Source of the DNA: Carcharhinus amblyrhynchos
Taxonomy: Eukaryota
Length of the DNA: 64,000 nucleotides
NCBI GenBank assembly: GCA_965287045.1
Contig: OZ336873.1
Coordinates: forward strand, 110,546,001-110,610,000
Direction of reading: 5' to 3'
A program made the position numbers and the translations under genes. Under the pieces are notes generated by a model that made no database searches, was not told where the DNA came from, and worked only from the letters and a program-made list of their open reading frames with translations. This document shows, piece after piece, positions 1,527-49,392 of this stretch; the first letter of the stretch is position 1; each line of letters begins with the position of its first letter.

Positions 1527-1765
1527 CTTTAATTGGAAGTAGAGAAAATGGCAAAATACATTAATTATGATAAACCTGCAGGTAATAGATGTACAGAATG
1601 TTTAAATAGTGTACAGTCTGCTTCTTGATACATTGCATCAGAGAATTGAAGTAGTTTTGTTATTCAGTAATAAAACATTGCCTTCTGTTGTCCTTGTTAA
1701 ATACAATGAATGACAATTTCTCTAATTTCACATTTAGTACTGGAAGAAGGGTGTTCATCACTTAC

Positions 1766-1814
1766 CCTGCTAATGCTACCAACCAGTTTTTGTAGGCTTT
1801 TGAGTGGGGACTTG
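1766..1814 (-). pseudogene. Exon H, 3' half (split by CR1): KSPLKSLQKLVGSISR
   Basis: Donor AGG|gtaagt at 1766/1765. Removing the LINE and one TSD copy restores a 100-nt phase 2 to 0 exon. Confidence 0.6.
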
Positions 1815-1829
1815 TGGGCATGTGGGGAC

Positions 1830-2827
1830 TTGGAGGGGCATGTGATGTGCTGTTTCTGTATGATGTGGGAGCTGGTGGACCCCAAGGTCCTTCCCAGTGA
1901 CCATGTGTGCAGTAAGTGTTGGTTGCTGGAGGAGCTCCGGCTCAAAGTAGATGAGCTGGCCTCTGAGCTTCAGACACTGAGGCTCATCAGGGGGAGGGGG
2001 TGTACCATAGATAATGGGGTGCAAGAGACATCCACACCCCCTAGACTGGCTCAACCTAAGAGTCAGGAACCAGAGGGGGCTGCTGGGGGGAGGAAGGGTG
2101 GGAGGAAGGGGGGGGGAGGGGAGTGGGGAGGAAGGAGGGGGGAGTGGGGAGGAAGGAGGGGGGGACCCAAATGCATCAGCCTCTCAATCTGTACAACAGG
2201 TTTGAGGTTCTTGCTCCCAGTGAGGACAAGAATGAGGGCTGTAAGGTTGACAAGCAAACTGCCCACGGTACAGTGATGCAGACACAGGACAAATACAAAG
2301 AGGAAGAAGTAAAGAGGAATGTAGTGGTAATTGGGGATAGTGTAGTTAGGGGTATAGACACTGTCTTTTGTCACAATGGTAAAGAACACAGAAGGGTGTG
2401 TTGTCTGCCTGGTGCTCGGGTCCAGGATGTCTCATCTGGGCTGCAGAGGAACCTGGAGTGGGAGGGTGAGAATCCAGTCGTTGTGGTACATGTGGGTGCC
2501 AACGACATAGGCAAATTGGGGACTAAGGATCTGGAGAGGAAGTATGAAAAGCTGGGAATGGAATTAAAAAGCAGAACCGACAAGGTGGTTATCTCTGGAT
2601 TACTACCTGAACTGCACGCAGATGGGCGTAGGGTAGATAGGATTAAAGAGATGAATGGGTGGCTCAGGGATCGGTGTGGGAGGAATGGTTCTGAATTTAT
2701 GGGGCATTGGCACCAGTATTGGGGCAGGTGGGACCTGTTCGGATGGGATGGTGTTAGTCTGAACCATGCTGGGACCAGAGTCCTGGCGAATTGTATAACT
2801 AGGACTGTAGACAGGGCTTTAAACTAA
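1830..2827 (+). pseudogene. CR1 ORF1 (Zn finger, coiled coil, SGNH/GDSL esterase), frameshifted in a G-rich tract
   Basis: CCFCMMWEL..HVCSKCWLLEELRLKVDEL; VVVIGDSVVRGID; VVVHVGANDIG; DGVSLN, where the catalytic His of DGxHLN is replaced. Confidence 0.93.
2073..2165 (+). repeat. Purine-rich G-run tract (GGAGGAAGG-like units) inside CR1 ORF1
   Basis: Nearly pure G/A with many G runs; G-quadruplex/H-DNA potential. Confidence 0.85.
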
Positions 2828-2865
2828 TTAAGGAGGGGGAGGGTGCAAGGGTAGGTGAAATTACA

Positions 2866-5810
2866 GTGTCTAAAGTAAAAGAGAGGGTACAGGTACAGGA
2901 AGAGGTCAAGGATGTCCCAATAATAAAGGGAGTAGGGGGCATGAGAAAGGTTGGTAGCGTTCCTTCAAATAGGGTACAGATAAATGCTGGGATAAAGACA
3001 CTTTATCTGAATGCACGAAGCATTCGGAACAAAGTGAATGAGCTGGTGGTGCAGATCAGCACAAATGGGTATGATCTGGTGGCCATTACGGAAACGTGGT
3101 TGCAGGGTGACAGGGACTGGGAGCTGACTGTCAGGGGTATCAAGTGTTTAGGAAGGATAGACGGGAGGAAAAAGGGGGAGGGGTAGCTCTGCTGATTAAG
3201 GATAGTATCAGGGTGGTAGTAAGGGAAGATATAGGTGCCAAAGAGCAGAACGTGGAATCGTTGTGGGTGGAGATAAGGAACAGCAAAGGGAGGAAGACGC
3301 TGGTGGGTGTGGTCTATAGGCCCCCAAATAATGACCTGGAGGTGGGGCGGGCTATAAACACACAAATAAATGATGCGTGCAGAAATGGAATGGCTGTAAT
3401 TATGGGGGATTTCAATCTACATATTGATTGGTTGACCCATGTTGGACACGGTGGGCTTGAAGAAGAGTTCTTGGAACGCTGCCGGGATAGTTTCCTTGAA
3501 CAGTGTGTGCTGGAGCCGATGAGGGAGCGAGCTATCTTAGATCTGGTGTTATGTAATGAGGCAGGTAGAATTAGGGACCTTGTTGTGAGGGATCCTCTTG
3601 GGAAGAGGATGAGTTTTTGATGGTTGAGTTTTTGATGCAGATGGAGGATGAGAAAGTAGGATCTCGGACCTGTGTCCTCTGTTTGAACAGAGGGGCGTAC
3701 GATAGGATGAGAGAGGAATTGGCAAATGTAGATTGGGGGCGCAGATTGGTCGGTAGGACTGCTGAGGAACAGTGGAGGATCTTTAAGGAGATCTTTCTTG
3801 GTGCTCAGCAGAAATTTATTCCGATGGTAAAGAAGGATCGTAGGAGAAGGGATAATCAGCCGTGGTTAACGAAGGAAATAAAGGAGAGTATTAAATTAGA
3901 AGCTAATGCGTTTAGAGTGGCTAAAAGTAGTGGGCAAGAAGAGGATTGGGAGAGGTTTAAAAATCAACAAAGAATGACAAAGGAGTTGATAAAGAAAGGA
4001 AAGATAGACTATGAAGCTAAACTAGCACTAAATATAAAAAAAAAGTATGAGTTTTTATAAATACATAAAGAGGAGGAGGCTGGCTAGGGTGAAAGTTGGA
4101 CCCTTAGAGGATGAGAAGGGGGATTTAGTGGTGGGGGATGAGGAAATGGCTGAGGCCTTAAATAAGTTTTTTGCTTCGGTCTTCACGGAGGAGGATGCGA
4201 ATAGTTTGCCAGGTATTAAAGATAGAAGGATGGTAGGAGTTGAGGGCCTGAATGCAATCACTGTCACTAGAGAGGTAGTGCTTGATCAACTAGCGGGACT
4301 GATGGTGGACAAGTCCCCAGGACCAGATGGAATGCATCCCAGGGTTCTGAAGGAAATGGCGGAGGTGATAGTGGATGCCTTAGTGATTATTTTCCAAACT
4401 TCGCTGGATTCCGGGGAAGTGCCAGAAGATTGGAAATGGCTAATGTTACGCCGCTGTTTAAAAAGGGTAGCAGGCAAAAGGCAGGGAATTATAGGCCAGT
4501 TAGTTTAATGTCTGTTGTAGGAAAAATGCTTGAATCCGTCATCAAGGAAGAAATAGCGAGGCACCTTGAGAAGAATTGTTTGATAGAGCAGACGCAGCGC
4601 GGATTTGTTAAGGGGAAGTCGTGTCTGACAAATTTATTGGAATACTATGAGGATGTGTCTAGTGTGGTGGACGGAGGGGAACCAGTGGATGTGGTGTTTC
4701 TCAATTTTCAGAAGGCGTTTGATAAGGTGCTGCACAAAAGGTTGTTACAGAAGGTTAGGGGGCATGGAGTTGGGGGTAAGGTGTTAGCGTGGATAGAGGA
4801 TTGGCTGTCAAATAGGAGGCAGAGAGTAGATGTCAATGGGTGCTATTCGGATTGGCGATTGGTGACTAGTGGGGTGTCCCAGGGATCGGTGCTGGGGCCT
4901 CAGCTATTTACCATTTATATAGATGATCTGGAGGAGGGAGCTGAGTGAAGGGTGTTGAAATTTGCTGATGACACAAAGATAAGTGGAAAAGCAAATTGTG
5001 CAGAGGGTGTAGAAAGTCTGCAGAGAGATCTAGATAGGCTAAGCAAGTGGGCGAGGACCTGGCAGATGGAATACAATGTTGGCAAGTGTGAGGTTATCCA
5101 CTTTAGCAGGAATAATAGTAGGAGGGACTACTATTTAAAGGGCGAAAAGCTGCAGCATGCCACGGTGCAGAGGGACCTGGGGGTCCTTGTGCATGAGTCG
5201 CAAAAACCCAGCCTACAGGTGCAGCAGGTGATTAGGAAAGCAAATGGGATGCTGGCCTTCATAGCGAGGGGGATTGAATATAAAAGTAGGGAGGTCTTGC
5301 TGCAACTGTACAGGGCACTGGTGAGGCTGCAGCTGGAGTACTGTGTGCAGTTTTGGTCACCACACTTGCGCAAGGATATTTTGGCCTTGGAGGGAGTGCA
5401 GAGGAGGTTCAATAGGCTGATACCGGAGTTGAGGGGGTTGAACTATGAAGAGAGGCTGAATAGACTGGGCTTGTACTCGTTGGAGTTTAGAAGGATGAGG
5501 GGGGATCTTATAGAGACGTATAAGATGATGAAGGGGATGGATAGGGTAGAGGTTGAGAGGTTCTTCCCGCTCAGAAAGGACAGCAGGACTAGAGGGCACA
5601 GCCTCAAGATAAGCGGGGGGGGGGGCGCAGTTTAGAACGGAGTTGAGGAGGAACTTCTTCACTCAAAGGGTGATGAATCTCTGGAATTCACTGCCCGTTG
5701 AAGTGGTGGAGGCTACCCCGCTGAATATGTTTAAGACGCGGGTAGATAGGTTTTTGGTAGGCAAGGGCATTAAGGGTTATGGGGAGAAAGCGGGGAAGTG
5801 GAACTGAGCC
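2866..5810 (+). pseudogene. CR1 ORF2 (APE endonuclease plus reverse transcriptase) with several frameshifts and a stop
   Basis: [70 protein letters not shown] and TRGHSLK, spread across six ORF pieces. Confidence 0.96.
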
Positions 5811-5898
5811 ACTTCAGATCAGCCATGATCTTATTGAATGGCGGGGCAGGCTCGAGGGGCTAGATGGCTTAGTCCTGTTCCTATTTCTTATGTTCTTA

Positions 5899-5959
5899 TG
5901 GGGACTTGCTCTAATCTAGTGTTTGATCTAGTACAGCACCTTCAGAGGAGTTGTGACAT
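5899..5959 (-). pseudogene. Exon H, 5' half (split by CR1): CHNSSEGAVLDQTLD*SKSP
   Basis: Acceptor tttctttccttgctcacag ending at 5960; runs into the TSD copy at 5899-5908; in-frame TAG at 5913-5911. Confidence 0.6.
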
Positions 5960-6517
5960 CTGTGAGCAAGGAAAGAAACAGCATCGTTCTTCAGCCAGTC
6001 AGATTGTTGACGACCTATCACAGAAATTGTAGTGGACAAGGGGTGAACGATGGAAAGGTCTGTTGACCTTGGGCAGGATTTTCTGGTTTGGTGGGGGGAC
6101 ATACTTGGACAGAAAATCCCACCCATTACGTCTAAACAATGAAGCAGGGTAAGCCTGGAATAAATCAATTTTAAATAATCTTCAGAAAGCAAAAGAAAGA
6201 TGGGATTAAAGTTTATTGGTCACAAGTAATCCTTACATTAACACTGCAATGAAGTTACTGTGAAATTCCCCTGTGTGATTCCCTGTGTGATTATAGGAAA
6301 GATATAAACAAAAGAGAGACAGAAAGAAAAATGGGAAAAAATGGATTATTAAAATATACCTCAGATTAATTTTCACCTGAAGGAATGAGATTCCTCAATT
6401 GTAAAATTACATTTTCAGGAACAGAGAGGTTGTTCAGCAATAGTTATCAATCAGCACACAATTATACATTTGTTTACTCCTCTATGCACTGATCCTAATC
6501 TTTGCAACCATTTTCAT

Positions 6518-30966: not shown

Positions 30967-33389
30967 AGTTCACAGCAGTTCACACGCCTGGAGAGGGATA
31001 GCATGAAGTGAAGGTCATTAGTTAGTAAACTGGGGATTGTTACAACCCACTGGCTTAATTCTAACCTGACACAACCATGGGCTTCCTGCGTTACACCATG
31101 CACAATTTAATATCCACTGACTTCAATAGAACACAACATCAAATAGATGTAAGATGGCATTCTACCCAAACCTGCACCATGTCCTGCTGAACAGGTTAGG
31201 TTACAATTTTACCCTCTTACTGGATGAAGAAAAAGTGAATGCTGCTGGTGCTGCCACCTGCCTAACCGGATTTGTCCATTGACAACAGACCAGTTAAATT
31301 TTGGTAGACTATGTCACAATCTGCAAAATAAAGTCAGTGGTTAGGAGACCTGGGCAACCTTGAAAAAACACATCAGGAATTTAGCGCAAAATATAACAAG
31401 ACTACTCTGAGGAAATACAATTTGAACCTGTAAACTGCGAGAACGTTGGGTGTCACACAGAAGTCGCAGTAATTGTAAACGGTAATGACATACCTTTTAC
31501 TTGAGAGCAAAACAGTGCACCAAATGGAGCCAGTTAATATATCCAGTAGAAAAATATACTTGCCAGCACAACTCAGGCCTCTTCATAGCCACCAGCGAGA
31601 CCTGTGAAACTAGTCATCTTGGATCAAATCAGAAAGAGTGTCCAGATGTCTTTTCAGGAACAGGCTGCCGCGAGGGAGAATATTAACTGCCTCAGATTCT
31701 CAGATGAAACTAGTGATTCATCCATTCAGCAAACTAGCAGTTGCAGTAAAAAGCCAGCTCAAGAAGTTGAAAGGCCGGCTAAGCTAAAGATGATGAACTC
31801 AGTAACCAACCTGGCCCAGTGAGTTTTCATTCAGGTCACTGCAGAAAAATAAGAGTTGGCATCGCACTTTGAGATTTAGACAGCTTAGGGCAAGGTAACT
31901 ATTTCTCGTCTATTACTGAGGATTTATTACCAGACTTAAGCTGTGTGAAAATCGTCAATCTTTTACTGTGTAGTACTGGATGGGAAGTATTCCTGTGCTA
32001 CAGTGCTTACTATGCATTTGGCAGTTGCAGATGATTGTGAATGCCCTTAGGGTTGCTAATTCTAAATTTGCATCTTGTCAAAGTATTTCTTAGGTTTTCA
32101 CAGGGACTTTTTTGTTGATGTCAGAGTTTCCACCCGCTCAGTATGAACGTCCTATTCCTTTGGTCCGGAAATATTCAACACTCCATGAGGTTTCATGCTG
32201 TCTTTGTGTGCCAAGAGCAATCCAGGATGCACAAGGATCTACAAAGAGAAAGACAACTTGCAAAATCTGCTTGAAAGTGCATAAAATATGTAATTGTTAA
32301 AAGTCATTTGTGTTGAGGTGGGTCTGATGAGATAATACTTCTTTGATTTAGCAGTTGAAAAACATACCTTCTGAAGGGAGGCAAGAGAATAGACCATTCT
32401 TTGAAAAAGCTACCGGAATTCTGCTGTGGAAGCACCAATCAACTGCTTACTCACATTAACCCCGAGAACAGTGATGTTTTCGCAATTGCAGATTTGCAGT
32501 TTCTCCGTCTAATCATGAAAGTTGATTAAACCATCCTTAGGCAGCTTGACCACAATGTCACAATAGGTGAGAAAGTTGTTTAAAAATAACCATCCCCAAA
32601 GGTGTGGCAGCCCTAACGTCTAAGCGGTATAATTAAGATCCCTGCTGTGCATTTTGAGCAGCGAAAAAATTCTCCCTAACTCGATTGTACATTGTCTTAT
32701 TTGTTTTATTTCCCACACAGTTGGTGTGAATTTGGAATGGGAATTATGATTTGAAGACAGAATAACAGAAGCATCAATTGTGCTGGCATTGACTGCGAAA
32801 TTGGAATCTATCTGGTTCCACTCCCCTGCCCTTTCTCCATAGCCTGCAGATCTTTCTTTTTGAAGTACATGGACGCAATTTTCTGTCCCACTCTGCTGGT
32901 CAAGTAACGTAGCAGGGGTGGGAAATTTAAGCGGAAAACAAAAAATCAAATTCCCATGCACCTGCCAATAAATTGTAAATATCAAGGGCCTTTTTTTTGC
33001 ATGATTAGCCTTGCGCCAACAAATGGCGCAAGGCTAATTGAAATATTCATCAACTGATTTCAATGTGTTTCATGAGTTCTGGATGGTATTGTCTGGGCTC
33101 ACTTGGATTTCCAATCTTGCCAATGGAGGTCCACAACAGCGGGGATCACAGCTAGTCCCCAGCAATGTTTATATTTAGAAATATAGTTTTCATTGTTAGA
33201 AACATAGTTTCTAACGGAGTAGGCTTAAAGGGCCAAATGGCCTATTCCTGCTTCTAGTTTCTATGTTTCTATGGTGGGGCCAGAGAACACTGAACCTTCC
33301 CCCCCCCCCCAACCCACGCACCCACCACGACCCTCCCCCATCTCCCCTCTGGTGGTCAGTGCCCCTTGGTAAGATTGCCCATTGCGGCT

Positions 33390-33735
33390 ATAAGAATTGG
33401 TCAGATGGTGGGAATTCTGAGATAAGTAATTGACTTCCTGACTTCCCACAGGTTGTCCACCATCTACAAGGCATAAGTCAGGAATGTGATGGATTTTCTT
33501 TCCACTTACAAAACATGGCTCCATCCAAGACAAAAAATCAGTGTGCACACCATCCTCCATTCTTAGCACTCACTTTATTCACCAACATGGCTGCAGTGTG
33601 CACCATCTGCAAGATGCACTGCAGTAATTTGCCAAAGTTCCTTCAACAGCAAATTCCAAACTCACAAACTTGACTGTAGAGAAGGACAAGAACAGTGGAC
33701 ACAAGGGAACATCTGCACATTCCTATCCAAGTGTG
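33390..33735 (+). mobile_element. Old CR1/L2-type LINE 3' fragment
   Basis: ccaccatctacaaggca.aagtcagga..caccatctgcaagatgcactgcag; same family as 61165-62460. Confidence 0.7.
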
Positions 33736-34345
33736 GCTGAGAATGAGCCCTATGTAAATGCCTTGAACAGAATACTTTGATGAGAGCTCACCTCCTGTAG
33801 TTCTACGTCACCTATGAATCCAAGAAATACCCAATGGTACAGGAATATTGCACTCGATATTCATGGTTAATGGGAAGGTAACTGTGTGTTGGTGCATTAT
33901 AAATTACCTGAACAGGGAAATGCTCAGGCAGGGAGTAAAAAATGGCTGATGGTGGAGTTATCGAAGGCAGGTGTCAAGTTTACAGTTACAGGCAAGGTTG
34001 TACTAACTACTGACTGCAATTCAAAATTCTCCTGCAAGTCAGAACATAGATTAACTGTCATTTGTCTGCTTAGTCTAAATCTATGTCTGACTTGTCTTCA
34101 CTAAAAGTCAAGAAACTCCAGTGGGACAGATAAACTGACAGGAAAGGATATAGCCTCCTCCTCTATCTTCTTTCCATGGCAGCAGCTGCCACATCCATCA
34201 TAATGTATCCTTCCATTGTCACGCTGTGTCTCCTTGCTGAAATTTCCTGCTCTGCTTTAAACGGCCCTAGTATTATTAAACGAGCTACACTTAAATGAGG
34301 CCTAAAACTGACTTTGATTTTAAAGTAGCAATTTAAAAAGCTTAC

Positions 34346-34487
34346 CTCAAGGCAATCCACTTGCTCTGTGAACCACAATGGGTTTTTAACATTTTTAATA
34401 ATTGAAAACAATTTGTCTTGACGTAGTGCATCTCTAATAGTACCGAAATCTTGTTTGAGAGTGCAAGCCACACATGACATGATCCTT
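34346..34487 (-). pseudogene. Exon E: RIMSCVACTLKQDFGTIRDALRQDKLFSIIKNVKNPLWFTEQVDCLE
   Basis: Acceptor catgctttcgacag, donor GAG|gtaagc. 142 nt, phase 2 to 0, open frame. Confidence 0.7.
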
Positions 34488-35459
34488 CTGTCGAAAGCAT
34501 GAACACAGGTTCTGCATTTTAACTCTGTTAGCCATCATGTTCAATATGGCTTCGTGTTATTTATATTACAGTTTTATACTCTTTAGCACTTGTAAAATCA
34601 GTCTGAACATTACAAAGATATTAATATAGATTTGACAAACTGAGGATTAGATGTTCTGTTTCTTTGAGCTCTGAGTAGCATACAGTTTACAGTAATAACG
34701 CAGAGATAATAAAATGACATTATGAAATCCTTCAGACAAAAAGCACAGCTCACAACTTAAATGGAAATGTTAATACTGGTCTTGTCTGTGTATGACAAAA
34801 TGCAGCACTCTCTATAGAGAGCGTGTGACATGCATCACTTTCTCACTCACCTGATTTAACATTATAGTCAGTTCTCTTATGCAGTGTGCTACTTGAAACA
34901 CCGACCTTTGCTATTAAACTGCATTAGCTACAATGGAAATAACCTCAGTGCCGTAATTTCTCATCATACCGGAGGATTGTTAGGTTAATGGGCCAAATTG
35001 ACCTGGAAAATAACCATGTGTTAATGATGTGCTGCTGTTATCAATGCACAAATCATCCAGCAAGTTCAGTGGGCGAAACTATACAAAGTGAGTCTCCAGA
35101 ACTTGCTGATCAATTTTAGCTGCTCTGCCATTTACCTCCAACAAAGAGCATTTTACCTTGGCCTCCCTGTTCATTTTAAAACCTTGCTGTATTTGCACAT
35201 TAATTGAGGACTAAATTCACCGCAGAGAGTAAGGGTTCATAATTAAAGAGGGTAATTCACATCAATGCGATGTCAACCAATTTGTCCGACATTGAAAGGA
35301 AACAATTGAATTTGTTAAATCTCATTCCCGCATGGAATAATTTGTTAGAAGTTTGAACAAAATTGGAGCATGGTGACTTCAGAAGAGCTGTGCCCAGCAT
35401 ACCCTCTAATTCAATCTTTTACTCTCATTCTATGTATTTAAAACTTTATTCTAACTCTT

Positions 35460-35628
35460 TTCAACTGTCTTTCTCTACACACTGGCTATGACTGTAACAT
35501 ACACTATGCACTCTCTCCTTTCCTTCTCTATGTACAATATGCTCCATCTGTATAGCACGTATGAAACAATACTTTTCACTGTATACCAATACATGGTCCA
35601 ATAATAATTCAAATCAAAATCAAGTCAA
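35460..35628 (+). mobile_element. Rex1/Babar 3' UTR fragment
   Basis: Matches 9070-9222. Confidence 0.8.
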
Positions 35629-37058
35629 ACTTTAAATGTTTTTCTCACTTTTGCTTTTTTTCTCTCTTTTCTCCCTCTTAATCCAATAATTTTTTTCCTT
35701 TATCATTTCCCTGTATGTATCTGATTTGAATTTAAGTCACCCTCCTCCAACATTCCTCTCTTGTTTCTCATTAGGTAAAGAGTTGCACTTTTGGTCCCAT
35801 CATTCATGCAGATCCCAGACTCCTCATTGCCCTGACATTCAGCGAGTTACAGAGCAAAACATTTTAAAGCTAAATGTTGCCAGAGAAAGTGTAAATAATG
35901 GCACACACGGGATGCCCCATGTACTTCAGCAAGATTTGTTGTTCAGTTATACTCCTAATTCAGTGAGAAATTTGGAGTTTATTTTGGAAGTTTTACTTGT
36001 GATTCCATCAAATGAATTAATAGGAATCTGACCTTGCATCATATGAGATTATAATATTATACACAACAAAAGTCTTCTCATAACATGTAGAGTATCAAAC
36101 TTGGGCTAATCCCTTACATGTATTTTGCAGGAGATGAATGAAGTGATAAGGAAAAGTATTGGCATTATTCTCACTTTTTACATTGACAAGCTGTTTCAAT
36201 GAGCTTCACAGCCTTGAAATGTATCATTACAATACAGGCAAACATGGCAGCCAATTTGTGCACAGCAAGGTCTGAGCACAAGCTGGGGGTGCAAAGATAA
36301 GTATAGCCCCTGGGGGAGAGGGACATACTAGAACAGTGCCCTGGCACTGCTCCCAGACAGTGCCAATCTGGCAGTGCCATCCTGATGGTGCTGGGTCAGT
36401 GCCAATGGTGGGCTCTCAGAGAAACTTCATTTGGGGGGGGGGGGGTGTTTCCCCTTATGTGTGTTTCGGTGGGAAGGTGGGTGTTGCCCGGTACTTGTGG
36501 GTGGGGGATCCCTGTACCCATGAACAGGTGCAGTATTCTTTTTAATGCAGATTGAGGTGCCTTTTAAATGGGCACCTCAATCTCTGTAGATCTGGTATTA
36601 CCAGTTCCATCAGGCCCCGCCCTGCCAGCGTGACAGCGAAAACCACGTTTCTGGTTTTTCTGTGCACAGCGTTCTAGAGAATCTGGAAAGAAAACTCAGC
36701 AGTGCAGCTGAAAAGCTGCACACCAGATTTCCTGCCCCAGCCAGCACTCTGTGCACAGAGTACAAAATTCTGCTTCATGAGTTGGAAAGAATGAAAAGAG
36801 AATTTGTGCTCTCTCTCTTGATATATATTTGTATACAATAAACACTGCAAGCAGTGTATTCAACATAAACCAAAAAGTTGCTGACTTCAGAGGAAAAGAC
36901 AGCAATCGTTTGCCAATTATTTAAATTATCACTGCACACACTCTGGAATTATCACTGAACATGGCCCGAAACCATTCAACACATCAACCTTCAGGATCCA
37001 TATAAGATTGACTTTCTTTTGTTTGCTCTTACACAATTGAACATAGCCTCCATGTAAC

Positions 37059-37093
37059 GTGTGTGTGTGTGTGTGTCAGATGTGTGTAAGTGT
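37059..37093. repeat. (GT)n microsatellite
   Basis: gtgtgtgtgtgtgtgtgt followed by degenerate units. Confidence 0.9.
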
Positions 37094-37240
37094 GATCTGC
37101 TATATTTTTATAATGGTTTATCTATTGGGGTTCAGGACAATGAGCTCTTTTCTCTTATTTATGAGAAAACCTATCTGCGTTTCTTTTGCAGTTATGGCAT
37201 TTAAACAATTAAATACTCAATAAGTTGACAAGAAAATTAC

Positions 37241-37308
37241 TTTAAAACTCCTGTTACTGTCAACCGAGAGGTGAAATAAAGGCAGACCATTTTAATACTT
37301 CTCACTGG
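37241..37308 (-). pseudogene. Exon D: PVRSIKMVCLYFTSRLTVTGVL(K)
   Basis: Acceptor ttctctttcttatcttacag, donor gtaatt. 68 nt, phase 0 to 2, bridges exons C and E in frame. Confidence 0.6.
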
Positions 37309-38554
37309 CTGTAAGATAAGAAAGAGAATGTCAAGTCCTCTTTTCTAGTGTAGAAGTGGTTGTTGTCTCTATTATTATAGATCCAAACATCATGCAGTGT
37401 TTGAACTGAGATCTCAACTTCCATTCCAGCACAAGTGGAAACCACCCAATGTCTAAGTTTTATAGTGGGAGTTCAGGCTCCTGTCTAACAAGGTGAGCTT
37501 GCTGTCTCGCAAGCTCAGACTCCTGCTCCCATGGCTATGGATTCCAATGCTCAAATGTTACTGCAGTGAGTCATAGCAGTCCAGCCCTCTGTCCCCCCAT
37601 AGAATAATGGGATTGCTGGGGTGCTTCCCCTAGGCAGTGGTAGTGACTCTGTGGAACATGCACTCTTAGGATGACAGTAATCATCTTCCCACCATGGCCA
37701 CTCCAACAATATCCTTATTGTTGTCCTTGGCTGCCAACCTCAGCTGTTGCAACTCTCACCAAGATGTCGTTTGAGGCAGGATGATTTGCAGTTTCCTCCA
37801 CTGAATGTCAGCAATCTCCAACCAGAAACATTGCAGCCATTGGGATAACACTGGACAGGAACACCAAGATAGGCAAAGACATGTGGAAGACAGACACAAA
37901 GAGAGATGCACAGGGGTAATTAGTTCACATTTGTGCTCAATATGGTATGCTTTGATTTATAAATTTGGTTTGGAGTGTTTATTTATTGGCCACTGTGGCC
38001 AAGCACATGCTATGTCAGTTAGCGATAGATGGAAGGTAAGGTATGGAAATGTTGGTGGATTGGGGTTACATTTACTAGCACCAGAGTTGGATAAATTGTT
38101 TATCAACAGTCAGCCACAAAGGGTCTCATTAGGTTGCCTCCTACCTTCCTCTTCTTGTACTTCTTACTTGTTCTCACTCTCCTCTTCCTGCTCACTGGTG
38201 ATCACCAGTAAGCAGGTGGCAACGACTTTGGTCTCATGATGGTAAGGCTGTGCAACATTAAAAGGACCACAATTAGTCTTGACATCTGCTCTGCCAAAAA
38301 CTGCCAGCATTTTCCACAAAAATAAAGTATATTTATAAATGAGTGATGTGGTGAACAGACACTGCAGATGAAAAAAGGATCAAGTTTAGCCAGAAGTTGG
38401 AGAAATAGAGAATAATGGCTGGCCCTATTTTACTTATGGCTTTAACTGAAGGCTAATGGACAAGTTGAATTTTTTAGCCTCGTCGAGAATACTTCCAAAG
38501 TGGGACCAATGTGCTTCAGGAAAGGAAGAAGGTGTTTCCATGATACCAACTCAC

Positions 38555-38813
38555 TGTTTCTTGGTAGCTGGTAGGTTGATAATTTAATCTCTGTAATACT
38601 GCTGTAAACTTAGGATGTTTGGAAAAAGTTAATCTAAACAGTGTTTTATATCGCCTGACTTTTAGTAAATCTGAGCTGCTGCCATCATAAACATTAATGG
38701 GGTCCACAAGTGAACTTGTAGTTCTGCCAGCAACCTACTCATCCCATAGCCTCCTGATTCCAGCAGAGTCATTGTTCCAGCGCTTAGATCCGATGGCTCC
38801 TCTTAATGTGGCT
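38555..38813 (-). pseudogene. Exon C: ATLRGAIGSKRWNNDSAGIRRLWDE*VAGRTTSSLVDPINVYDGSSSDLLKVRRYKTLFRLTFSKHPKFTAVLQRLNYQPTSYQET
   Basis: Acceptor tttttttcactgttctccttag, donor gtgagt. 259 nt, phase 2 to 0, with a single TAG at 38737-38735 in an otherwise open 86-codon frame. Confidence 0.7.
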
Positions 38814-39139
38814 CTAAGGAGAACAGTGAAAAAAACAACAGTGTTTAAATAACTGGCAACTACTAAGCAAAATACTATAGATGTTTCTTCCCCACATGTG
38901 GTTAGATACACTTTATTTTAATTTTTGAGCTTTCTTTCTCCATGGGCCAGATCTTCCCTCACCTGTGTAGGATGTGTTGCAGCCATTTTGTTTTGCTGCA
39001 GTCGTCTGAAACTACCAACCATTCAGGATCTTTCTCCAATGTAGGTCTGTAACATAACCCTGTTTGAAAGAGACTTCTTCTCAGTAACAATTTACAGATC
39101 ACAAGTTAGATGCTAATCAGGTTTAACAAAGTTTTGTGG

Positions 39140-46432: not shown

Positions 46433-47580
46433 GTGGCACAGTGTTTAATTTTGTTTGATAATCCTCCTGCTTAGTGCCTTGGGATGCTGAACGTGCTCTA
46501 TAAATAAGGTTGTTATTGTTGAGATTAACAAATCTTCCAATAACAAACCAATATCACTTTATTTGAGTCACTGTACTACAGATAAAAAAAATACTCTAAT
46601 TCCTCATGTTTCGATTAATAGATTTAAATAATGAATAAGGATCATATTATGTTGGTACAACTCATACAATCCATAGAACTGTTGGCATCACTTGATAAAA
46701 TAAAACATCGCCATGAGGTAATTTTTTGATGCTAGTTAAGCAGTCGTTTTTAGTACCTTTTCTCGATTTGGAGTACAGATGATTATTGATTTATACATTG
46801 TGCAAAATATTTGGCCATGAGTTAGTGAAATCGCTTTTGTTTTTGTGTGCTGGGAAAGGCTATTGCTTTAAATTGAATATTCTTTCCCATTTCAAGTATT
46901 CAATGAGTGTATTCACCGCTTCATTATTTTGAAGTTGGATTCTACAATTTGTTTTGCAATGTTAGGTGTCTAAAGCTGAGAACTAAGCTGTTGAGTGGCC
47001 CACTTGACCAACATGGAATGGCCACTCCCGCTAACTAAATTATTTTTGGTCTATACAACTGACCTATTTTCTACAATGGGCACAAAGAATTAAGAATGGG
47101 CTGAATTAGACAGTCTCTTCTCCAACACTGAGTGGAATTCTCTGGCTGTACTAGTCTAAAAGCTGGAAATACCTGCCCGATTGTCAATGGGGTTTCACAT
47201 TGTCTGCAACCTGCCTGTTAAAATTCCAGTGCTGGACAGGATGGGAGAATTCCAGCTATTATTTCATATCTGCCTTTTCATTGTGGTTAAGCCTCATCAA
47301 GTTATGGATAACCACACAGACTTGGTGAGGCAAATGCTGCCATTTTCATTTTCTGCAGGGTTTATTTACCAGCTCCCTCTCATGGGAAAAACCACAATTT
47401 CTAAAGTTTAGAAATGTCATTTTGATCTTTTATGTCTCTCCTCCTCACTGGGAGATAACTTGATTCAATTATTTGCTTACTGGGAAGGTAAGTGTTGTTT
47501 CAAAGGCTGTGATCTTTTTATATATTTACAGAAATGCCATTTCTTTTTCATATCCCTAACTGTGAATCTAGTCTCCAAAC

Positions 47581-49392
47581 AGTGGGGGACTGTGACCCAT
47601 TATTTGAGTGGTGGAGGGGGGCAGGAGGCCCCTCTTTGCTGAGGGATGGTGGAGCTTCCCCGGATCCTCAGGGTCCAGAACCCCAGGCCCATGCTGGTCA
47701 TTGTCAACACCAACACCCATGTATTTCCCGTTGGAGACATCGGTGAATGGCAGAGTTTGTCAGGTGGGATTCACCCACCTGATGAATCCAAATATATGCA
47801 TCCTGAAAATCCCACCAGGCATCCAAAACTAGGTTATTTGTTTACAGGTTTAGTTGATGAGGCTGGGTTGATTTCACCACCATGTGTTTTTTTTTGTCTT
47901 TCTCCTTCATTCTAACATTCTGATCAAAGATCAACAACCTGAAACTTGGCCGTGATTCTCCCAAATTTGGACAAAGTGCCCACACCAGCAGCAAGTCTTT
48001 CCTGCTGGCCTGGCAGTGTGTTTCAGGTGAGATTCACTAATCTAATGCATCCAAATATATGCATCCTGGGAAATCTGCCAGCCAGATTGGCTCCCCCACC
48101 CTCCAAATGGAAATAATATCTCCCCCACCCTCCCCCCCTGCTGACCAAGAGAGCACCAACAACCCCTCCACAAAAGAGGGGCATCCTCCCTCTCACCCAC
48201 AAATAATGGGCTGTTCCCCTTTCACCATGTAGGCATGAGGGTGACCCAACCGCCTCCACTCAGGCACCCCCACACACATTCCCCCCTCGTCATTCAGATC
48301 CCAATTTAGCCTCCTTCCCCACTCATTCCCCCACTTATCCCCTCTTTCCTACTCAGATTCCCCATTTAGCTCCACCCCACGCTAACCCCTACTAACCCCC
48401 CTTTCCCCATTTAGACCCCCCTTCAACTTCCCACCTACCCAGATGTCCACTCAGGCTCATCTTCAGGCCAAGCACCTTGGGAGTACGAAGGTGATCTGTC
48501 CCCTGGCACTCTGGATGTCTGTCACTGACATCTTGACCTGATGCCTTGGGTGTTGAGGGAGGTGAAGGAGGTTGGTCCAGTGGCCATTTGCCTCTCTGCT
48601 ACTGCCAAGGCTGCCTGAAATCATCATGTCAGGGGTGATCGTCAGGTCTCCCAGGACTAGAAGTGGCAATCTAGCCTTGAGGCACCATTCCTGGGAGAGT
48701 GTGGCTCCTTTGCTCCCAGCCCAAGCCCAACCAACCCAAGGACCTTTGAGGGACTCTTACTCTGCAGCCTGGCAGTGGCAGAGGGAAAATGGCCACTGGA
48801 CCTATCTGACCTGCATGTGGGGCTTAAGGTGCCGACCGGGTATCAGTGCCAGTGTGCCAGAAGTAGCGGAGCTGAAGAGTGTCCTGGTGGGAGTCTGAGA
48901 GGGGAGGTGGGCTGAAGGGGAAGCTCTGTGGGGGGTGGGTCAGGTTGAGTCAGCCTCATGTCTGTGTGGTGTAGGCGAAGTGGGGGACTGTGACCCATTA
49001 TTTGAGTGGTGGAGGGGGGCAGGAGGCCCCTCTTTGCTGAGGGAATAGTGGAGCTTCCCCGGATCCTCAGGGTCCAGAACCCCAGGCCCATGCTGGTCAT
49101 TGTCAACACCAACACCCATGCATTTCCCACTGTAGATATAAGTGAATGGCAATGTTTGTCAGGTGGGATTCACCCACCTGATGAATCCACACATATGCAT
49201 CCTGAAAAACCCACCAGCCAGAATGCCCCCCTCAAAATGGAAATGATTTCCACCCCCCCCACCCCCCTCACTGACTAGGGAAGCACCAACAACTCCTCAC
49301 CAAAGAGGGACATCCTCCCTTTCACCCATAAATAATGAACCATCCCCCTCTCACTACGTAGGTATGAGGGTGACCTGTACCCATCCACTCCC
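47581..49392. repeat. Composite direct and inverted repeat cluster
   Basis: Direct pairs: 47581-47818 with 48979-49217, and 48022-48262 with 49157-49390. Inverted pair: 48150-48252 with 48940-49045. Confidence 0.85.

Follow-up and report, generated by a model that had tools for sequence, protein, structure and literature searches.

The stretch of DNA analysed here, which we call the window, comprises 64,000 nucleotides of the Carcharhinus amblyrhynchos genome (GenBank assembly GCA_965287045.1, contig OZ336873.1, positions 110,546,001 to 110,610,000 of the forward strand). It carries, at 1831..5898, a dead copy of a CR1-type long interspersed nuclear element (LINE), and the two flanks of this copy, when joined, form a 100-nt unit on the minus strand that is bounded by splice-like signals. 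The insertion site falls in a 484-kb interval between a formin gene on the left and PCDH19 on the right, about 136 kb from the PCDH19 stop codon and about 348 kb beyond the last exon of the formin. We read 864 kb around the site and screened the 664/864-kb region by eye on long open reading frames (ORFs) together with tblastn, and this screen, in which small genes could be missed, found no gene between PCDH19 and the formin; on sequence grounds, the insertion site is intergenic. The original prediction had read the flanks as an exon whose gene was either killed by the LINE or already dead, but no host gene was found for them. We consider it rather probable that the splice-like signals around the LINE make up a pseudo-exon that arose by chance and that the insertion was neutral; it probably broke no gene.

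A truncated CR1-type LINE and its junctions

The LINE lies on the plus strand and is flanked by an exact target-site duplication (TSD), the 10-mer TGGGGACTTG, whose left copy (1805..1814, plus strand) agrees with the right copy (5899..5908, plus strand) at 10 of 10 positions with no extension, a match that has a chance probability of about 1e-4. The same 10-mer occurs a third time at 1823-1832, within 18 additional bases at the 5' junction (1815..1832, plus strand). These consist of 8 bases resembling the start of the LINE followed by this third copy, and the final TG of the third copy overlaps the LINE start codon as a 2-nt microhomology. The original prediction had obtained its exon by deleting the LINE and one copy of the TSD; the TSD is indeed present, but two of its copies plus the 8 extra bases must go.

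Between the duplications, the copy is truncated at its 5' end. Position 1831 corresponds to the TG of the ORF1 start codon, the A of which is absent, and it is exactly here that the match begins for 13 of the 24 other copies in the genome; the 5' UTR that these 13 copies have in common, up to ~330 nt long, is missing from the copy at 1831-5898. The ORF1 remnant (1831..2827, plus strand) is covered by the ORFs 1710-2276 and 2060-2827 and contains a GDSL/SGNH esterase-like part, its frame being broken around a G-rich expansion near 2060-2170, and its match to PF13472 (E = 2.2e-06, 28.7 bits) lies below the curated cut-off of 32.9 bits. The ORF2 remnant (2803..5635, plus strand) is split into six pieces and matches the AP endonuclease families PF14529 (E = 3e-06) and PF03372 (E = 9.4e-05) as well as the reverse transcriptase family PF00078 (E = 1.3e-22). 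The 3' end is made of short TTCTTATG-type units, not poly(A), that stand immediately 5' of the TSD. Elements of the CR1 clade have an SGNH/GDSL esterase in ORF1 and end in a short tandem repeat, not in poly(A), and by this anatomy we take the element to be a CR1.

To measure its decay, we compared the copy with the column majority of the 20 of 24 copies that cover 2260-4500, and obtained a Kimura two-parameter (K2P) distance of 3.0%, or 2.1% without CpG sites. Of 2,239 sites, 30 carry private changes, and the nearest copy is 5.4% away. The search for LINE copies and flanks covered 2.92 Gb of genome and revealed a dispersed family, with 39 other scored copies showing 92-95% identity over 800 nt and ~5,800 first-look candidates genome-wide for its ORF1 region, a figure that is not a copy number. 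The description of the LINE as well preserved holds at the DNA level but goes no further, as the 5' UTR and the start A are lacking, four indels are found in 2260-4500 (near 3131, 3608, 4043 and 4433) and a TGA stop interrupts ORF2 at 4946-4948. Without its 5' UTR, and with four indels and one stop, the copy is dead, and it is an ordinary CR1-type copy, one of thousands of decayed copies. It resembles other shark LINEs of the CR1 clade in its esterase-bearing ORF1, its ORF2 with endonuclease and reverse transcriptase, its short-repeat 3' tail, its 5' truncation and its TSD, and, apart from the short 18-bp duplication added at its 5' junction, differs from them in nothing of substance. CR1 and CR1-Zenon are named as the main LINEs of hammerhead and mako in PMC9826928, and the 2-3% divergence of our copy falls within the burst at 0-5% that this paper describes for hammerhead. 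As a separate observation, the longer copies of the family (L068-L091) carry a donor-like consensus motif in the 5' UTR, on the sense strand and ~45 nt upstream of the ORF1 start, and this motif was present with small variants in 14 of the 14 copies shown.

The locus displays a TSD, a truncation at the start of ORF1 with a 2-nt microhomology, an 18-bp duplication at the junction and 2-3% decay. From what is known of target-primed reverse transcription, a LINE endonuclease would have cut the target with a 10-nt stagger, and the reverse transcriptase would then have copied the LINE RNA from its 3' tail, halting at the start of ORF1, after which the 5' end of the LINE may have been joined to the target via the microhomology. 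The extra 18 bp were probably left by an aborted first attachment or by a later slip. The copy would have been neutral and would have decayed after spreading in an ancestor common to this shark and organisms A and B.

Relatives also carry the insertion, namely samples X3, X5 (organism A) and X6 (organism B). Their contigs span 850/854-1860 and run through the 5' junction and its additional 18 bp; of ~1,010 letters, 5, 9 and 18 differ (up to 1.8%), and there are 3, 4 and 9 gap letters, respectively. Since the junction is found in all three, the insertion cannot be put down to misassembly and is older than the split from organism B. No empty site was seen over the left flank in X3, X5 or X6, none of the pieces listed covers the right junction, and a further sample, X13, covers only 950-1173 of the flank. 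The idea that the LINE is a datable marker is borne out for relative age, both by its divergence and by the shared junction, but absolute dating is loose: the shark rates quoted in PMC9826928 translate into 1.6e-10 to 1.1e-9 substitutions per site and year, at which a divergence of 2.1-3.0% corresponds arithmetically to about 20 to 190 million years, a span that makes the insertion a relative marker and not a sharp clock. With its single-copy flanks and the distinctive 18-bp signature of its 5' junction, the insertion lends itself to use as one presence/absence marker in the phylogeny of ground sharks.

The splice-like unit and the neighbouring genes

Removal of 1815-5908 yields the 100-nt minus-strand unit, 5959..1766, with AG before it and GT after it. 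Its 5' half (5909..5959, minus strand, 51 nt) contains a TAG at 5913-5911 and is preceded by an acceptor-like polypyrimidine tract with AG (5960..5979, minus strand), which scores 7.1 bits in a simple weight matrix; its 3' half (1766..1814, minus strand, 49 nt including one TSD) is followed by a donor-like GTAAGT (1760..1765, minus strand) of 6.4 bits. The acceptor AG at 5961-5960, the donor GT at 1765-1764 and the TAG, all noted in the original prediction, were confirmed in the sequence, and so was its phase 2-to-0 exon, as the unit gives exactly the 33 codons described, with one stop. Among the 35,737 AG dinucleotides in 264 kb the acceptor is one of the 100 best, and among the 27,993 GT dinucleotides the donor is one of the 70 best; their spacing of 100 nt also falls in the range of 50-250 nt that suits an internal spliced exon.

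Both halves of the unit are single-copy. The left flank (1480-1815) matched only itself in the genome, and within the right flank (5900-6200) only about 6013-6136 is repeated, and we rejected a repeat or a recent duplication as the source of the flanks. We likewise rejected the 3' half of the unit as 5' UTR of the LINE. The left flank gave no match to the upstream sequence of the 13 copies at E<=0.1, and as the homology of the other copies starts at 1831 and the flank is unlike their 5' UTR, the 3' half is host DNA.

To the right of the site, PCDH19 is intact on the minus strand, and its best structure match is protocadherin-19. Its four coding blocks together account for the full 1106 residues of a shark orthologue at 99-100% identity and end at window coordinate 141,820; blocks at L056:2103-4835, L047:3881-4228 and L024:7820-8530 (minus strand) show 99-100% identity to a Mustelus protein, to which the last exon is 100% identical. 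An alternative internal exon known from a catshark PCDH19 isoform weakly matches the sequence at window coordinate ~201,400 (E 0.5). To the left, and convergent with PCDH19, a diaphanous-type formin occupies C4:109.85-110.20 Mb on the plus strand, with FH2 exons at C4:109.85-110.02 Mb, a DAD exon at 110.086 Mb and the last exon at ~110.20 Mb (L096:174-270; last exon in L107). By synteny and a motif, this formin is probably DIAPH2. A literature search found no paper on the insertion locus between PCDH19 and the formin, and in the accessible part of PMC9004415 only fossils of transposable elements, and no lost host gene, are listed near PCDH19 and DIAPH2.

The proximity of PCDH19 raises the reading that the unit is a distal alternative exon of this gene, which would give a short C-terminal isoform through splicing from PCDH19 exon 1, 2 or 3 in place of the normal last exon. 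The unit does stand on the same strand, 136 kb past the last exon, and short shark isoforms of PCDH19 (822-945 aa) are annotated. Yet none of 19 shark PCDH19 isoforms, short ones included, ends in sequence mapping to the unit, and no frame of either half scored above 30 against the fetched proteins, where self-scores are 74-101; the 3' half had no credible homologue among the fetched PCDH19 proteins, nor, at the DNA level, in its own genome beyond itself. Such a transcript would moreover have to run past the usual 3' end of PCDH19, and since a donor follows the unit, it is not a terminal exon. We regard this reading as most improbable.

Coding potential of the unit

Upstream of the site on the minus strand, window 32368-39059 contains an exon-like cluster (39059-38963, 38361-38168, 34927-34851, 34487-34346 and 32423-32368), of which some members are open and phase-matched. 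A coding interpretation would make the unit a phase 2-to-0 exon of a minus-strand protein gene, killed by the LINE or already dead, with the first, fourth and fifth members of this cluster as upstream exons and the TAG as either a nonsense change or the natural stop. In its favour, the splice sites of the unit are strong, and phase-matched minus-strand candidate exons can be chained from ~39 kb down to the site; but among 82 overlapping 45-kb windows, 8 matched the score of the best phase-matched chain through the site, or 7 when stops are disallowed, and the best of these lay on the plus strand. The frame of the unit itself argues no better for coding. All three frames stop within the 5' half, and a frame with at most one stop was found in 88.6% of 5,000 random unmasked 100-mers, so that the near-open frame is not more than expected by chance. 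Neither the frame nor the splice pair on which the exon reading of the original prediction relied exceeds what chance provides in the interval.

Homology searches pointed in the same direction. A Pfam scan of 84 of the 87 host candidate exons (264 kb), excluding two that overlap the LINE junction and one that crosses the locus boundary, returned 0 matches. The protein search with the 5' half of the unit gave nothing at E<=10, a weak test with 15 exon residues in a query of 41, and the most protein-like upstream candidate exon, 34346-34486, had no credible homologue either, though the database holds a shark proteome with PCDH19 at 99-100% identity. That candidate exon matched only itself in the genome, which contains no paralogue of it or of the halves of the unit, and in the ESM Atlas it reached a recognition value of 2055 (under 2300) and retrieved only unnamed clusters. 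Its phmmer search of 1.84 billion proteins produced four matches with E values from 1e-07 to 4e-04. All four belong to the two-component propeller family (PF07494), with a single named member, which is bacterial; their scores are summed over 11-13 repeats with a best single stretch of 3-10 bits, and we rejected them as chance.

Gene inactivation by a LINE that lands in an exon is known from other loci, such as human F8 with an L1 element in exon 14, and so are unitary pseudogenes. Our locus resembles such cases in having a TSD-flanked LINE between an acceptor and a donor, but differs from them in that no parent gene, orthologue or paralogue is identifiable and the coding status is unsupported. 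The same holds for the other possibility that had been raised, an insertion into a 3' UTR with the TAG at 5911 as the natural stop, for which no gene was found either. We therefore judge a coding exon at this site, whether intact or dead when the LINE arrived, to be very unlikely.

Chance background and the non-coding alternative

In the 484-kb interval, 13 AG..GT pairs are as strong as that of the unit or stronger (>=13.4 bits), 8 on the plus and 5 on the minus strand, and together they occupy 0.39% of the bases; looser thresholds over 664 kb gave 57 pairs on the plus strand versus 60 on the minus strand. Calculated from the ~5,800 candidates, ~20 copies of the LINE family are expected to lie in such pairs by chance genome-wide. 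With 13 equally strong pairs in this interval, some insertions in a LINE-rich genome should land in one by chance. Pseudoexons, as PMC1935003 presents them, are stretches of 50-200 nt between good acceptor and donor signals that normally remain unspliced, and they may outnumber real exons up to tenfold. The unit is like them in its length of 100 nt, its strong signals, its stops in every frame, its lack of a homologue and its many equals nearby on both strands, whereas pseudoexons are defined in that paper for introns of transcribed genes and the unit stands in intergenic DNA.

Several observations weigh against a chance origin. Any given insertion has only a ~0.4% chance of landing in such a pair, and the sites of the unit equal the real sites of neighbouring genes in strength (nine sites; acceptors 1.3-7.8 bits, donors 5.3-8.8 bits). 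Two further minus-strand pairs are close by, a moderate one (7304-7123) at 1.2 kb upstream and one that outscores the unit (16.3 bits) at 6.4 kb beyond the donor on the downstream side, and the 15-kb neighbourhood of the site is the second-best cluster among 29 pairs of at least 12 bits. The CR1 3' ends between PCDH19 and the site are oriented 6 plus to 1 minus, as expected inside a minus-strand transcript, and the background pairs may themselves include unannotated exons of long non-coding RNAs (lncRNAs). The tools add caveats of their own, as the splice weight matrix is simple and crude, and homology searches with short peptides are weak.

These observations bear on the alternative that the unit is a real internal exon, present or past, of an unannotated minus-strand non-coding RNA, either a lncRNA of the gene desert or read-through from PCDH19, an alternative that we regard as possible but doubtful. 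The strong splice sites, the same-strand exon-like neighbours and their cluster, the orientation of the CR1 copies and the stops in all frames, which suit a non-coding exon, would all fit it, and a human lncRNA named DIAPH2-AS1 exists. Against it, the exon-like pairs show no strand excess, and an Rfam scan of window 1-42,000 gave no match. In the non-repeat sequence of the interval, the T-A skew has a small positive value (0.038 left, 0.010 right), when a negative value would be expected of a minus-strand germline transcript, but known genes here also show little skew; the CR1 3' ends in nearby real genes are likewise unbiased in orientation (6:6 and 1:2). Base skew and LINE orientation are uninformative because the known genes, as positive controls, show no signal. 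DIAPH2-AS1 lies beside DIAPH2, and the transcript considered here would similarly be a minus-strand non-coding RNA near the 3' end of a DIAPH2-type gene, but the unit lies ~348 kb beyond the last exon of the formin. The downstream pair of 16.3 bits bounds a 231-nt exon-like unit at L016:5161-5391 (minus strand), which would be the natural next exon if the site were spliced.

Had the unit been a real exon, insertion of the CR1 in antisense would have stretched it to 4.2 kb, and the exon would then have been skipped or cut at cryptic sites, with weak selection allowing fixation. Read in antisense, the LINE within the unit offers three poly(A)-like hexamers and several acceptors, the best of them at 6.7 bits, but its new donors are weak (best 3.3 bits), and the likely effect would be exon skipping or a premature transcript end. 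The wider form of this proposal, an unannotated spliced minus-strand transcript that runs through the PCDH19-DIAPH2 desert of ground sharks with one exon split by a clade-shared CR1, can be put forward only tentatively; the transcript would be a lncRNA, a shark-specific protein gene being less likely. Were it true, the insertion would be a natural, phylogenetically bracketed knock-out that could be compared between species with the filled and the empty site, and should RNA show the unit spliced in species without the insertion, this would amount to a bracketed loss of a transcript beside PCDH19, a neurodevelopmental gene. On the reading that we prefer, a neutral insertion into a chance pseudo-exon, the locus has little significance beyond its use as a phylogenetic marker.

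Some minor features were noted in the same region. The strongest acceptor-donor pair of the interval (18.4 bits) is found at window 47359-47487 on the plus strand, with a neighbour of 13.0 bits at 47848-48026 on the same strand; the two have stops in every frame and may be a pair of lncRNA exons. The open frame at L024:2407-2808 (minus strand), for which Pfam gave no match, and that at L040:6459-7466 (minus strand) resemble retroviral envelope-type fragments, and the frameshifted, intronless fragments at L032:3478-4126 (minus strand) may represent a processed pseudogene of eIF3 subunit G.

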